From NCBI GenBank assembly GCA_041690135.1, contig JAWLHY010000003.1, positions 128,001-192,000 on the forward strand: 64,000 nt of DNA. Reading direction: 5' to 3'. The notes under the pieces were generated by a model that ran no database searches, was not told the DNA's origin, and saw nothing but the letters and a program-made list of their open reading frames with translations. This document shows positions 2,305-6,296 of the stretch, piece after piece. The stretch is from Armatimonadota bacterium. Lineage in GTDB: Bacteria > Armatimonadota > SYMT01. A program made the position numbers and the translations under genes. Within the stretch, counting starts at the first letter, position 1. Each line of letters opens with the position of its first letter.

Positions 2305-2814
2305 ATGGTCCCCCTGTTGTTCCTGTTTCTGGCCGCCCAGATTCCGGGTGTGCCGCGTTCCCAGCCACTCCCACGGCCCAAGGCACCGCCCCGGCCGCCG
2401 ACCAGCATTGCGCTGGTGATCAAAGCCGGCGGCAGGGAGGTCCGCACGACGGTGTTGCCCAGGCAACCTCCACCGGCCCGGCGGAGCACCGCCCAGGCAG
2501 TCGCCGGCGAGACGCCGCAGGTGCGCTGGATGGTCCAGAATGAGGGCCAGAAGACCCCTCTTCGCAGCGTTGTGGTGCACTTTTTGATTCACCGGATCGA
2601 GGAGCCGAACCAGCCACTCGCCGAGGAGCCGCAGAAGGGCTCCTTCGCGGACCAGGTGCTGGGGACGGACCTGAAGCCCCGGGGCAAGACCACCGGAAAC
2701 TACAACACTCCGATCTACACGCCGGGGGTTTACCTGGTGGAATTGGAGCTTCTGGACCCCACGGGCACGCGCCTGCAGTATGCCGCCCTCGATCTCACCG
2801 TCACCGAACGTTAG
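2305..2814 (+). CDS. Secreted hypothetical protein, probable Ig-like beta-sandwich; paralogue of next gene
   Basis: Hydrophobic N-terminus, Pro-rich linker, PGVYLVELE motif, ends AALDLTV. Confidence 0.7.
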   Translation: MVPLLFLFLAAQIPGVPRSQPLPRPKAPPRPPTSIALVIKAGGREVRTTVLPRQPPPARRSTAQAVAGETPQVRWMVQNEGQKTPLRSVVVHFLIHRIEEPNQPLAEEPQKGSFADQVLGTDLKPRGKTTGNYNTPIYTPGVYLVELELLDPTGTRLQYAALDLTVTER

Positions 2815-2880
2815 AAACTCCCGCGGGGACAAGTGAAGACGAGGGGAAGCCGGAAAACAATAGGGAACGAAGGGAAAGCG

Positions 2881-3393
2881 ATGCGACTGCGGATGATTTT
2901 GCTGGCGGTGGGTGCGCTCGGCACGGCGGCAGCGTGGACGGGATGGAGTGCCCGCCCCGCCGGGGCAGAGCACTTCGACATTGGCTTACTGGTTCAGACG
3001 TCCCAGGGCCGTGCTGAATCCAGTTGGGATACGCATCCGCCGGAGGGAGGTCTCAATCCCCGGCCCTCCGTGGAGGCGAAGGTGGGAGAAGACATTCCCA
3101 TTGAGTGGCGGATGGAAAGCGAGTTCCCGCATGGGGTGATGAAGGATGTGGTGATCCGCCTGTTTATCGTGCGGGAGAAAGAGATCGGGCAAAAGGAATT
3201 GCCGCCGGCCACCGAACCGCGGCTGCTGGACAACAGCTTCCGGGCCGACTTCCTCCCGCACCACCGCGCGCGAGGACACGTATACTTCCGGCCGAAGGAA
3301 CCGGGGAATTACCTGATCCGGCTGGACAGCGAATTCACCTTCAAAGAACACGGCCACGAGCACTTCGGAGCCGTGGACCTGAAAGTGGAGTAA
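2881..3393 (+). CDS. Secreted hypothetical protein, probable Ig-like beta-sandwich with His-rich C-terminus
   Basis: Signal peptide MRLRMILLAVGALGTAAA; PGNYLIRLD; ends EHGHEHFGAVDLKVE. Confidence 0.75.
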   Translation: MRLRMILLAVGALGTAAAWTGWSARPAGAEHFDIGLLVQTSQGRAESSWDTHPPEGGLNPRPSVEAKVGEDIPIEWRMESEFPHGVMKDVVIRLFIVREKEIGQKELPPATEPRLLDNSFRADFLPHHRARGHVYFRPKEPGNYLIRLDSEFTFKEHGHEHFGAVDLKVE

Positions 3394-3417
3394 GAGCTTT
3401 GCAATAGTTAGGTTGGC

Positions 3418-3510
3418 AGCCCCGGAGGGGCGAAAGACAATAGCCGGGGGTGAGCGTAGCGCTGCCCCCGGACAGCTTCCGGGCACCCCGAGCCCTAGAG
3501 GGGCGGCAGA
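3418..3510. repeat. REP-like palindromic doublet
   Basis: AGCCCCGGAGGGGCGAAAGA (3418-3437) and AGCCCTAGAGGGGCGGCAGA (3491-3510) flank a CCGGGGG...CCCCCGG hairpin (3444-3471), between convergent genes. Confidence 0.65.
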
Positions 3511-3550
3511 GGAGCGCCGCCCCGCGAGCCGAAGTGCTGGGATACAGGAT

Positions 3551-3760
3551 TTAGCGCCGCGGCTGCGAGGTGTAGAAGATCAGCCCGACAAGCGCCAGGA
3601 GGCCGACCGCCTGGAGGGCGGGATGACGGAAGAGGAATACTCCCGTCATCGCCGCCAGGGCGGCCGCCAGGACGGCCGCACCCGGAAACTTACGCCCCGC
3701 GCGCCAGACGAACAACACGCTCATCAACAGCACGATCACCAGCAGGGCGCGAACAGCCAT
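3551..3760 (-). CDS. Small membrane protein (2-3 TM)
   Basis: 69 aa, strongly hydrophobic, starts 5 nt after the ligase-like gene stop. Confidence 0.65.
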   Translation of the reverse strand: MAVRALLVIVLLMSVLFVWRAGRKFPGAAVLAAALAAMTGVFLFRHPALQAVGLLALVGLIFYTSQPRR

Positions 3761-3765
3761 AGGAC

Positions 3766-4809
3766 TTACCGGGCTCCTGTCGCCACCAGGTCTTCAGGGA
3801 GGCGGCAGGTGTCGGCGGCACCCTCCCCTACGAGGCCCACGAAGGTGGCCGACCGCATCACTCCGTTCTCGGCCCACCCCTGGTGCCGAACCCGACACAC
3901 CAGCTTGGGTAGCACCCAGTTCGGCAGCCCCTTTGCTTCAGGCATCTCGTGGAACGGACACGCCCGCTGCTTCCAGCGCAGCAGGTCCTGATGCAGGGTG
4001 CGGAGCGTTTGCGCGTCCATCCCGGTACCGGTATGCCCGATATACACCAACTGGTCGCCGCGGTAGAGGCCGAGCAGCAGCGTTCCGATCGACCCGGCGC
4101 GTGCGCCGCGCCCCTCGGTCCAGCCGCAGATCACGGCGTCCACCACTTCCATCGGCTTGATATTCAGCCAGTCTCGCGTTTTCTCTCCGGCGTAATAACG
4201 GCCCCGCAAGCGTTTGGCCATCACGGCCTCCAGGTCCTGCTCCTTGGAGCGGCGTAGTGCCGCGGCGCCATCGGTAAAGACCGGAGAAAGGCGCACGCGC
4301 GGCGTCGCTTTCAGGTCGACCGCTCGCGTCAGGATGTCGCGGCGCTCGTCCCAGTTGACGTCGAGCAACCAGCTATCCCCGATGCGCAGGATATCGTAGA
4401 TCACATAGGTAACCGGCATCTCCTCGATCAACTGCGCCAGAACCTCCGGCTGGGTGGTGGTAATGCGGCGTCGCAGGGCCGTGGGCGAAGGACGCTCCCC
4501 TTCCATTACTACCAGCTCGCCGTCGAGCAGCACCCACTCCGGCATGGCGGCCTTGCGGAGGGCGGCGAGTTCCGGAAACCAATCGCTGCTCTCCTGGCCC
4601 GTGCCGGAACGCAGGGAAAGCTGCGTGCCTTCCAGCCCCGCCAGTACCCGGAGCCCATCCCACCGGATTTCGTAAGCGTGTTCGTCGCTGTCCAACGGCC
4701 CGGCGGCGCTGGTGGGCAGCATGGGGAGGAATCCTTCGGGTAGGATTCGATGTGTGTTCCAGGCAGAACCGGGAACGTAGGCGCGTTTTAGATCGACAAT
4801 TTCCGACAT
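3766..4809 (-). CDS. ATP-dependent DNA ligase (LigD/LigC ligase + OB domain) homologue with substituted active site
   Basis: YEIRWDGLR (motif I), LLDGELV (III), YVIYDIL (IIIa), EAVMAK (IV), WLNIK (V), OB domain YIGHTGTG. Confidence 0.85.
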   Translation of the reverse strand: MSEIVDLKRAYVPGSAWNTHRILPEGFLPMLPTSAAGPLDSDEHAYEIRWDGLRVLAGLEGTQLSLRSGTGQESSDWFPELAALRKAAMPEWVLLDGELVVMEGERPSPTALRRRITTTQPEVLAQLIEEMPVTYVIYDILRIGDSWLLDVNWDERRDILTRAVDLKATPRVRLSPVFTDGAAALRRSKEQDLEAVMAKRLRGRYYAGEKTRDWLNIKPMEVVDAVICGWTEGRGARAGSIGTLLLGLYRGDQLVYIGHTGTGMDAQTLRTLHQDLLRWKQRACPFHEMPEAKGLPNWVLPKLVCRVRHQGWAENGVMRSATFVGLVGEGAADTCRLPEDLVATGAR

Positions 4810-5177
4810 GGTTACAGCAAATCCATCCGGAGGAAGAGAGGGTATAGTAGGCGCTCTTCGCGTCTGCTCATGATACGAGAATTTCCCACTTTTATCCGGA
4901 ATATGTTGGTCTTAAATGATGGTGAGAGTGGCTTTCAATGGAGCAATCGCCGCCCCGTAAGGATGCTCTCCAGGGGCCTGCTTCGCCGCTTACCCGTCCG
5001 GTGTCCGGACTGTTTATTCGTCAGCACAGAGCAATTAACGGGTTCCACAGACATCAGAGTTCCCGCTTCGGCCGGCCGCTATTACCCCGAGGGTTTATCA
5101 CGTGGAACACCGAATAGGGTAGAAGCCGCAGCCTCGTCGGGAGGCGGAGTTCCACGATTCTATAGAGGAGAGGGGAG

Positions 5178-6296
5178 ATGGCGGAAAAGAGCTATCGCGC
5201 GGCCGTTATCGGGCGCACCGGGCAGGGCGATTACGGGCACGGCCTGGACGTCGTCTACAACGGTATGACAAATGTCAAGGTGGCGGCCGTTGCCGATCCC
5301 GATGAGCAGGGACGGGCCCGCTGCGCCGCCCGAACAGGGGCCACGGAGCAGTTCGCCGACTACCGGCAGATGCTGGAGAAGGTGAGGCCGGATCTCGTTT
5401 CCATCGGACCGCGGTGGATCGATTGTCACCATGAAATGGTACTGGCTTGCTGCGCCGCCGGTGTCAAGGGCATCTACTGCGAGAAGCCGTTCGCGCGCTC
5501 GCTGGCGGAAGCCGATGAGATGGTTGCGGCTTGCAAGAAGGCGGGGACCTATCTCGCCGTAGCGCATCAAAACCGCGCGATTCCGTACCTGCCGCACGTC
5601 AAGCGGTTGATCGAGAGTGGTGCGATCGGCAAGTTGATGCGGGTGCGGGGAAAGGGCAAAGACGACGCGCGCGGCGGAGCGCAGGACCTGATCGTGCTGG
5701 GAACGCATGTGCTCGATATCATGCGCGCCGTGGCAGGAGATCCGGTATGGGCGTTCGGCCATATCCGCCAGGATGGTCGCGATCTGACCCGCGCGGAGGT
5801 GCGCGAGGGCGGAGAGCGGTTGGGACCGCTGGGCGGAAACAACCTTACGGGTTATTACGCGTTTCCTCACGGCGTGGCCGGTTCTTTTGAATCGTATGTC
5901 AGCAAGGGGAGTGGTCGCTTCATGGGCGTCTGGTTTGAAGGCACGGAGGGGACCCTCACCTTCCATGGCGGCTTCGACAAGCAGGTCTACCTCTGCAAGA
6001 CGCCGCAATGGACTCCGGAATTGGGCGGCGGAGCCTGGGAGCGTATCCGTCTGCCGGGCTGGGACAACGGTCCGGATGGACACGCCCGCTCCGGCGCCGA
6101 GATGCTGGTGCTCGCCAACCAGCGGATGGTGCAGGGCCTGATCGACTGCATCGAGAAGGGGGGAACCCACTTCTCCAGCGGCGAGGATGCTCGCTGGGCG
6201 ATGGAAATGTATTTCGGGATCCCCGAGAGCCAGCGCACCGGAGGCCGTGTCAAGCTTCCGATGGAGAACCGCCGGAACCCGTGGTCGCTACTGTAG
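5178..6296 (+). CDS. Gfo/Idh/MocA family oxidoreductase
   Basis: N-terminal Rossmann fold, IYCEKPF, GTHVLD; SD GAGGAG upstream. Confidence 0.9.
   Translation: MAEKSYRAAVIGRTGQGDYGHGLDVVYNGMTNVKVAAVADPDEQGRARCAARTGATEQFADYRQMLEKVRPDLVSIGPRWIDCHHEMVLACCAAGVKGIYCEKPFARSLAEADEMVAACKKAGTYLAVAHQNRAIPYLPHVKRLIESGAIGKLMRVRGKGKDDARGGAQDLIVLGTHVLDIMRAVAGDPVWAFGHIRQDGRDLTRAEVREGGERLGPLGGNNLTGYYAFPHGVAGSFESYVSKGSGRFMGVWFEGTEGTLTFHGGFDKQVYLCKTPQWTPELGGGAWERIRLPGWDNGPDGHARSGAEMLVLANQRMVQGLIDCIEKGGTHFSSGEDARWAMEMYFGIPESQRTGGRVKLPMENRRNPWSLL

Follow-up and report, generated by a model that had tools for sequence, protein, structure and literature searches.

Can a DNA ligase gene be maintained without the lysine that ligases adenylylate, and what might its product then do? 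The question is raised by a gene in a 64,000-nucleotide stretch of an Armatimonadota bacterium (assembly GCA_041690135.1, contig JAWLHY010000003.1, positions 128,001 to 192,000 of the forward strand), called the window in the following and numbered from its first letter. On its minus strand, the window contains a 347-amino acid (aa) ligase-like open reading frame (ORF) at 3766..4809 and then a 69-aa ORF at 3551..3760. In Mycobacterium tuberculosis (Mtb) LigD, the motif I lysine K481 forms the ligase-AMP intermediate (PMC8656161); the window protein has an arginine at this position. The original prediction, which a model made from the DNA letters alone, had described an intact ligase gene with a systematically altered active site that is coupled to a small membrane protein. 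Our analyses suggest that an intact ligase homolog is probably maintained here without the adenylylated Lys, repurposed rather than working or decaying. At the family level, we give a probability of about 0.6–0.7 to the reading that the gene is a selected LigD derivative that does not self-adenylylate, and a higher one for the Arg-bearing members of the family. This reading builds on the active-site residues that a clade of relatives keeps and gives up, and on the tree and the substitution rates of that clade.

A ligase fold with substituted catalytic motifs

By sequence and by predicted fold, the protein is a member of the ATP-dependent DNA ligase superfamily. It matched the Pfam families PF01068 (DNA_ligase_A_M; 72.6 bits, cut-off 26.2) and PF04679 (DNA_ligase_A_C; 72.7 bits, cut-off 27.5), and among solved structures the ligase domain of Mtb LigD matched best (1vs0, HMMER E 1.9e-30). 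An AlphaFold2 model computed with 48 homologs had a predicted local distance difference test score (pLDDT) of 92.1 and a predicted template modeling score (pTM) of 0.82. The top Foldseek matches of this model were ATP-dependent ligases with E values of 1e-27 to 1e-24 (e.g., 3rr5 with 1.2e-27 and 1vs0_B with 1.9e-25), and the match probability was 1.00 for 3rr5, 1vs0, 6nhz and human Lig1. In an NCBIfam scan, however, no model reached its cut-off. Nearest came TIGR02779 with 199.8 bits, below its cut-off of 227.75, while TIGR02776 scored 155.8 bits against 373.2.

The public gene call (P0001, 318 aa) begins at Met30 and omits residues 1–29, which are conserved in the clade described below. Trp17 is found in 44 of the 48 clade proteins, whereas nearly all other LigD-like sequences (208 of 209) are gapped at this position. 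Because the N-terminal residues are conserved in this way, the longer 347-aa ORF is likely the product. The features of the locus, all on the minus strand, are as follows.

3766..4809 (minus): ligase-like ORF, 347 aa, a stand-alone LigD-type nucleotidyltransferase plus OB protein of a non-canonical clade (Pfam, 1vs0 match, AlphaFold2, Foldseek)
4723..4809 (minus): N-terminal extension, residues 1–29, with clade-conserved W17, P24, F27 and P29 (nearly invariant alignment columns)
4156..4722 (minus): nucleotidyltransferase domain, residues 30–218 (PF01068 match 41–218; 1vs0 alignment)
4663..4665 (minus): codon CGG for Arg49, in the column of the adenylylated Lys (Mtb LigD K481; HMMER alignment)
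4603..4605 (minus): Gly69, in the column of Mtb LigD Arg501 (clade versus canonical alignment)
4213..4230 (minus): motif IV EAVMAK (E194–K199), with Glu and Lys retained and Gly replaced by Ala
4156..4164 (minus): motif V N216-I-K218, with the first Lys (Mtb K635) lost and the second position (K637) basic
3832..4149 (minus): OB-fold domain, residues 221–326 (PF04679 match 237–326; model strands 221–326)
3820..3858 (minus): motif VI remnant, residues 318–330, with MR.(A)TF retained and R-x-D-K turned into V-G-E-G
3551..3760 (minus): hydrophobic ORF of 69 aa for a predicted small membrane protein, beginning 5 nt after the ligase-like ORF

In the HMMER alignment with 1vs0, the motif EIRWDG, which begins at residue 47, places Arg49 (CGG, 4665-4663) on the Lys of EGKWDG in Mtb LigD. 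EAVMAKR is found opposite EGVIAKR, i.e., EG has become EA, and WLNIK opposite WVKDK, i.e., KxK has become NIK. At motif VI, V327, E329 and G330 stand where R-x-D-K is expected. The window protein hence lacks four features of a competent ligase, namely the motif I Lys, the motif V KxK, the motif IV EG and the motif VI RxDK. The substitutions at motifs I, IV and V agree with the original prediction, as do the preserved frame, OB fold and motifs III/IIIa. Its claim of a change from LRHP to MRSA holds only in part: MRSA is present at residues 318–321, but Met and Arg are normal in canonical relatives (Met at the first position in 3 of 10 canonical outgroups, Arg in 10 of 10). Only P321A is unusual, and it occurs in 6 of the 48 clade members. 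As judged from the alignment, the motif VI loss proper lies 6–9 residues beyond MRSA, at RxDK.

A clade that keeps adenosine and metal contacts

A word-indexed protein search returned about 50 proteins at 44–80% identity (255–631 bits), followed by ordinary LigD-like proteins at no more than 196 bits. The same break appeared when 1.84 billion cluster representatives were searched exhaustively: six scores of 416, 351, 255, 251, 241 and 222 bits were followed by a continuous series that began below 196. This search set no length limits, and among its representatives no clade member longer than 348 aa, and thus no fused form, was found. A search of the ESM Atlas gave nothing beyond generic LigD-like clusters. 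Our clade alignment comprises 48 near-full-length proteins including that of the window; the fragments P0047, P0049 and P0051 did not enter the trees. Clade members are 42–80% identical to the window protein, with 30 invariant columns and a mean column identity of 55%, and all 48 ORFs are intact. The closest ortholog, P0002 with 80% identity, also has Arg at motif I.

Residue roles were taken from Mtb LigD (section 6 of PMC8656161). The 48 clade members have the following residues in the corresponding columns.

Adenine contact, Mtb Glu479: retained in 48/48
Ribose contact, Mtb Arg486: retained in 48/48
Ribose contact, Mtb Glu530: retained in 48/48
Motif III Asp: retained in 48/48
Adenine contact, Mtb Lys618: K 45, R 3
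Catalytic metal, Mtb Glu613: E 38, D 8
Nucleophile, Mtb Lys481: K 27, R 21
Phosphate contact, Mtb Lys637: K 26, R 22
Phosphate contact, Mtb Arg629: R 31, K 15, Q 2
Gamma-phosphate, Mtb Arg501: R 0 (G 33, A 8, S 5, V 1, P 1), with R in 14/14 canonical sequences
Transition state/gamma-phosphate, Mtb Lys635: K 0 (S 27, N 10, T 5, A 3, H 2, Q 1)
Motif IV Gly: G 5, A 24, S 19
Motif I Asp: E 36, D 12
Motif VI R-x-D-K: R 0, D 8, K 0

In window numbering, Glu47, Arg54, Asp96 and Glu98 are each present in 48/48 and Glu or Asp194 in 46/48. At motif VI, Arg occupies column 327 in 0/48 clade members versus 9/10 outgroups, and Lys occupies column 330 in 0/48 versus 6/10. As a control, we aligned to the clade profile a further 210 LigD-like proteins, taken from both homolog searches. 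Among these, Lys481 was present in 195 of 204 aligned sequences, Lys635 in 202/210, the motif IV Gly in 209/210, and Arg or Lys at the Arg501 column in 178/201. On the basis of these alignments, the pattern is a selective one: contacts to adenosine and the catalytic metal are retained, while residues that act on the triphosphate and the leaving group in step 1 are lost or relaxed. Arg49, with which the original prediction had opened its case for an altered active site, does not set the clade apart. Arg occurs in 21/48 members, Lys and Arg alternate at this column, and the losses common to the whole clade are those of the first motif V Lys, Arg501, the motif IV Gly and RxDK.

The clade also has features of its own. 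At 22 positions, at least 90% of its members share a residue that is found in at most 15% of other sequences; W17, W77, W92, W147 and W153 are among them, and so is the block R142-I-G-D-S-W147. These signature positions indicate new constraints rather than decay of the sequence. We also inspected the 48-member alignment for an alternative nucleophile: besides K199 of motif IV, which is also canonical, no Lys column is invariant or nearly so.

Truncated relatives consist of the nucleotidyltransferase domain only and lack the OB domain (L008 5851-6660 in genome G005 and L020 about 2586-3197 in G001). Their motif I column reads His (HWEG) in G005 and Ala (AWNG) in G001, and both have retained the LRIG(D/N)SWLLD block. 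Outside the clade, the motif I Lys is missing in 8 of 203 aligned LigD-like proteins (P0158, a truncated clade relative, was set aside). These eight have Ala, Asn, Gln, Leu or Arg instead (P0115, P0116, P0215, P0222, P0174, P0196, P0252 and P0105), and P0115 and P0116 additionally carry a LigD phosphoesterase domain. They may be independent lysine-less lineages or pseudogenes, and with such sporadic cases outside the clade the phenomenon may be wider.

Lys and Arg interchange under purifying selection

In a tree of the 48 clade members and 10 canonical sequences (tree 1), the clade lies on one side of a branch with a support of 100 in the Shimodaira–Hasegawa-like approximate likelihood ratio test (SH-aLRT). 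Tree 2 was built with 14 canonical sequences, the two truncated relatives and P0050; again, a branch with support 100 splits off the 51 sequences that lack the first motif V Lys. The separating branch has a length of 0.47–0.8 (0.8 in tree 2). As sister of the clade, tree 2 gave a canonical pair (support 97) within a group of support 98.

Within the clade, parsimony counted seven changes between Lys and Arg, and the starred branches of the tree alone force two. A tree that holds the 21 Arg sequences together was worse by 93.7 log-likelihood units (approximately unbiased (AU) test, p=0.010), and a single origin of Arg at motif I is rejected on this alignment. Sister proteins that differ at motif I have about equal terminal branches, as seen for P0029 (Lys, 0.29) and P0030 (Arg, 0.27) or P0012 (Lys, 0.39) and P0016 (Arg, 0.35). 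For nine loci with DNA available, the Arg codons are CGG or CGC and the Lys codons AAG. These are two steps apart, and the Arg states are therefore not fresh. An ancestral Arg, as suggested by tree 1, was also considered; tree 2 has a basal polytomy, and we dropped the claim.

Pairwise ratios of nonsynonymous to synonymous substitutions (dN/dS, method NG86) were 0.12 for the closest pair, L023 and L030 (198 codons, dS 0.88), and 0.24 for the Arg-Arg pair L007 and L027. For the window, the rough ratios were 0.27 with L004, also an Arg-Arg pair, and 0.28 with both L023 and L030; other clade pairs reached up to 0.58. The dN/dS check that had been proposed with the original prediction thus gave 0.12–0.28 for the pairs named here. 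By these substitution rates, the clade is under purifying selection, and the gene is not a lone decaying copy. An early pseudogene with Lys-bearing closest orthologs, named at the outset as the finding that would overturn the idea, is not what we see: P0002 has Arg, as have 21/48 members, and dN/dS is well below 1. With a catalytic residue missing, the fold kept and maintenance by selection across the clade, the window protein has the features that define pseudoenzymes.

Possible functions and alternative explanations

What could such a protein be selected for? In the likeliest reading of the residue pattern, it would bind nicks or 5'-adenylylated ends. The family has retained the two-domain fold with its adenosine, ribose and catalytic-metal contacts, and has given up the residues of self-adenylylation, i.e., the motif I nucleophile, where Lys and Arg became interchangeable, Arg501, Lys635, the Gly of motif IV and the RxDK of motif VI. 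The window protein should then be unable to form ligase-AMP and might act on nucleic acid without ATP, either as a non-catalytic binder of nicks or ends or as a binder of the AMP on a 5'-adenylylated nick. On an adenylylated nick, it could carry out the last ligation step only, or it could sense or protect such ends. The downstream membrane protein would be an accessory of one subclade and stand outside the core function.

A natural, ATP-independent enzyme restricted to step 3 would recognize the 5'-adenylylated nicks (AppDNA/AppRNA) left by abortive ligation, and seal or resolve them. Analogy speaks for this idea. According to PMC3514331, Lys-to-Ala mutants of the Chlorella virus, Methanothermobacter thermautotrophicus and vaccinia DNA ligases and of the RNA ligase MthRnl lost steps 1 and 2 and still joined pre-adenylylated substrates, and the step-3-only activity is therefore biochemically plausible. 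In these engineered enzymes (Chlorella virus K27A, Mth K251A, vaccinia K231A, MthRnl K97A; PMC3514331), the nucleophile is gone, the fold and pocket are kept, and only step 3 remains, as may be the case for the window protein. They are, however, point mutants of active enzymes, whereas the change in the clade is natural, extends to further step 1 residues and is kept by selection. We regard the step-3-only enzyme as a tentative and rather doubtful candidate. Doubtful to a similar degree is the thought that bacteria would thus have answered, with a LigD domain minus its self-adenylylation residues, the problem that aprataxin solves in eukaryotes. If the step-3-only activity were true, the window protein could serve as an ATP-independent ligation reagent.

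Alternatively, the protein might be a purely structural binder of nicks or ends, or a scaffold, with neither chemistry nor a nucleotide ligand. The retained fold and OB domain and the lost nucleophile would fit this, and there is a precedent for a non-catalytic ligase role: the yeast DNA ligase IV polypeptide (Dnl4) is reported to aid end joining without adenylylation of its own (PMC3694833). Dnl4, however, is a eukaryotic and normally active enzyme that works with Lif1/XRCC4 and Ku, and no Ku was detected in the genome of the window. Moreover, a mere scaffold has no obvious need for acidic metal ligands and adenosine contacts such as the invariant Glu47, Arg54, Asp96 and Glu98 and the nearly invariant Glu/Asp194, over a mean column identity of about 55%. 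We hence consider this alternative possible, although it is unlikely as the full explanation.

Several observations weigh against a non-self-adenylylating family. The motif I Lys is still present in 27 of 48 members, and these could be weak but real ligases. A nearly invariant Arg67, two positions ahead of the Arg501 column and on the same strand, might take over the role of Arg501. According to PMC3514331, MthRnl K246A, which lacks the first motif V Lys, self-adenylylates at high pH and high ATP, and wild-type archaeal RNA ligases do without one motif V Lys; the loss of Lys635 alone is therefore no proof of inactivity. In the Mtb LigD complex, no direct contact between motif VI and ATP is seen (PMC7470946), which weakens the motif VI argument. 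The group for the AU test was picked from the alignment after the first tree had been seen, and in the window pairs dS is near saturation (1.0–1.2), which makes their ratios rough. Finally, no DNA-repair gene was found as a conserved neighbor, as judged by Pfam on 29 flanking ORFs of 8 loci.

Such observations invite the explanation that the family still works as an ATP-dependent ligase, in which Lys-bearing members ligate, perhaps slowly or with another cofactor, and Arg-bearing ones are recent dead copies on the way to loss. In addition to the Lys in 27/48, all metal and ribose contacts are retained, and MthRnl tolerates the loss of the motif V Lys at the cost of a higher Km for ATP (PMC3514331). 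Yet the Arg lineages do not look recent, with CGG and CGC two steps from AAG, dN/dS of 0.24–0.27 between Arg-Arg pairs, Arg- and Lys-bearing sisters on equal branches and intact ORFs in 48/48. Furthermore, Lys-bearing members, too, have lost the equivalents of Arg501 and Lys635 as well as the first and last residues of RxDK. This makes a working ligase improbable to our mind, and clearly more so than a scaffold.

The original prediction had coupled the ligase-like gene to the small membrane protein encoded downstream, and a membrane-tethered DNA-end factor, for example, would result if both acted as a unit. In the window, the two ORFs are indeed only 5 nt apart (TAA at 3768-3766, ATG at 3760). 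We counted neighbors over 12 loci, with L028, a duplicate of L007, counted once. A homologous hydrophobic ORF follows the ligase-like gene at six of them (window, L004, L023, L024, L029 and L030). It is absent downstream at L005, L006, L025 and L026, however, and was not seen in the 300–400 nt available at L007 and L027. The distance between the two genes ranges between 5 and about 150 nt, and in genome G004 they are found on separate contigs, where the homolog (46% identity) has an unrelated ORF of 614 aa next to it. An alignment of seven of the small proteins has 10 invariant columns, and the 69-aa ORF matched no Pfam family above cut-off. Prediction of a complex between the ligase-like and the 69-aa protein, from alignments of 48 and 7 sequences, gave a score of 0.00 (mark 0.32), which counts neither for nor against a complex. 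A correlation of the neighbor with Arg was considered and rejected, since L023 has the motif I Lys plus the neighbor. The pairing is hence a subclade feature on which the family does not depend, and joint action as a unit seems a shade less probable still than a working ligase. The original prediction had asked whether RWDG/NIK and the membrane neighbor mark a conserved clade; there is such a clade, but neither Arg nor the neighbor defines it.

That an ordinary LigD-type ligase acquired its Arg49 through an error of sequencing or assembly can be practically dismissed; the original prediction had already called a single sequencing error unlikely. A search of sequencing runs listed two soil metagenomes (0.14 and 0.08 of the sampled words) and no RNA run; their contigs cover 4485-4635 and 4675-4825, on both sides of codon 49, with the codon itself in the gap 4636-4674. 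Two substitutions separate CGG from AAG or AAA, Arg recurs in the 80%-identical P0002 and in 19 further clade members from other assemblies (among the independent loci CGG in L004, L024 and L027 and CGC in L007), and A195, N216, G69 and V327 are common to the clade.

Relation to LigD and genome context

Fold and descent place the protein among the LigD-type ligase domains, but it lacks the catalytic features that define them. It shares architecture and length of the nucleotidyltransferase plus OB unit with the LigD LIG domain (M. tuberculosis, PDB 1VS0, 6NHZ; TIGR02779), which is its best sequence match and a top fold match, and motif III, motif IIIa, the motif IV Glu and Lys and the motif I Gly and Arg are conserved. 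It differs from this domain by the Arg in place of the adenylylated Lys, by the loss of Arg501, Lys635, the motif IV Gly and RxDK, by its clade-specific N-terminal extension and 22 signature residues, and by a genome in which no Ku was found. What characterizes the LigD of non-homologous end joining (NHEJ) in TIGR02779 and TIGR02776, i.e., the score, a Ku partner and a fused or adjacent Prim-Pol and phosphoesterase, is missing for the window protein. LigC-type stand-alone ligases (NF006078) are likewise of about 350 aa and consist of a ligase domain with no fused polymerase or phosphoesterase, but the match is weak (133.2 bits, cut-off 296). LigC enzymes as a rule keep the canonical ligase motifs.

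Searches of the open-access literature and bioRxiv turned up no account of this clade, nor of any polynucleotide pseudo-ligase that occurs in nature (subscription literature was not covered). Polynucleotide ligases are defined by lysyl-AMP, and a clade that freely swaps Lys for Arg stands outside this definition. It seems to build a new conserved surface, with five new Trp, while selection holds the pocket. The clade could thus be a natural experiment that separates recognition of the nick and AMP, and possibly step 3, from self-adenylylation. As a practical consequence, the JGI label "bifunctional non-homologous end joining protein LigD" would wrongly credit NHEJ to genomes without detected Ku.

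The assembly that contains the window has 9.1 Mb and is 97% complete. Ku (PF02735) gave no match in the window, as had been noted originally, or in the entire assembly, and the LigD phosphoesterase (PF13298) had no match in this genome. The same genome encodes NAD-dependent LigA, a 575-aa canonical ATP ligase (EDKFDG, EGLMIK, WLKYKK) and a 478-aa ligase with canonical motifs (L003 1192-2628 on contig C7; SEKLDG, EGLMLR, LLKVK).

Full-length clade members occur in five of eight genomes of the order and nucleotidyltransferase-only forms in two; none was found in G003, which is 69% complete. Ku was found in one of the eight genomes and Prim-Pol in three; the clade has survived in genomes where Ku was not detected. 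The genome with Ku, G006, has ku (286 aa) followed after 1 nt by a 331-aa stand-alone ligase (L019 5133-6990 on contig C26) whose motifs are all canonical (KWDG, EG, KIK, RPDK). It is a sister of the clade, and the clade member of G006 lies on another contig. The nearest canonical relative of the clade is thus a ku-adjacent stand-alone LIG from the same bacterial family. Among 401 sampled genomes of the phylum, scores of 492–561 bits were seen only in the bacterial family of the window, and all others had at most 224 bits, mostly inside LigD frames of 800–900 aa. In the simplest history, a Ku-associated stand-alone LigD-type ligase gene would have been duplicated in this lineage and one copy would have diverged. 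Later, ku and the canonical copy may have been lost from most genomes, with the divergent copy retained.

Some further observations concern the surroundings. In the 478-aa ligase, a compact core is flanked by an N-terminal extension rich in Cys and His and by a C-terminal tail; these ends may be SWIM and WGR domains. A stand-alone LigD-type Prim-Pol is encoded elsewhere in the genome (L062 6000-6995, contig C8:25044-25799; PF21686, 280.8 bits), with no adjacent ligase and with neighbors that look unrelated to repair. NCBI records of the bacterial family of the window carry the names Armatimonadota, Actinomycetes and Actinomycetota. A scan of 3300-5250 for promoters and terminators gave nothing useful on the minus strand. 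Divergent from the ligase-like gene, a Gfo/Idh/MocA oxidoreductase is encoded at 5178-6296 on the plus strand. It is the only recurring neighbor among the flanking ORFs surveyed with Pfam, at three of the six full-length loci examined (window, L005 and L026), which we take as lineage synteny; the ligase-like genes of L005 and L026 are only 52–56% identical to that of the window. On the other side, and convergent to the ligase-like operon, lie two adjacent plus-strand ORFs without a Pfam family, of 169 aa (2305-2814) and 186 aa (2833-3393). These two are distant paralogs of each other, with 27% identity over 112 residues (E 3e-07).

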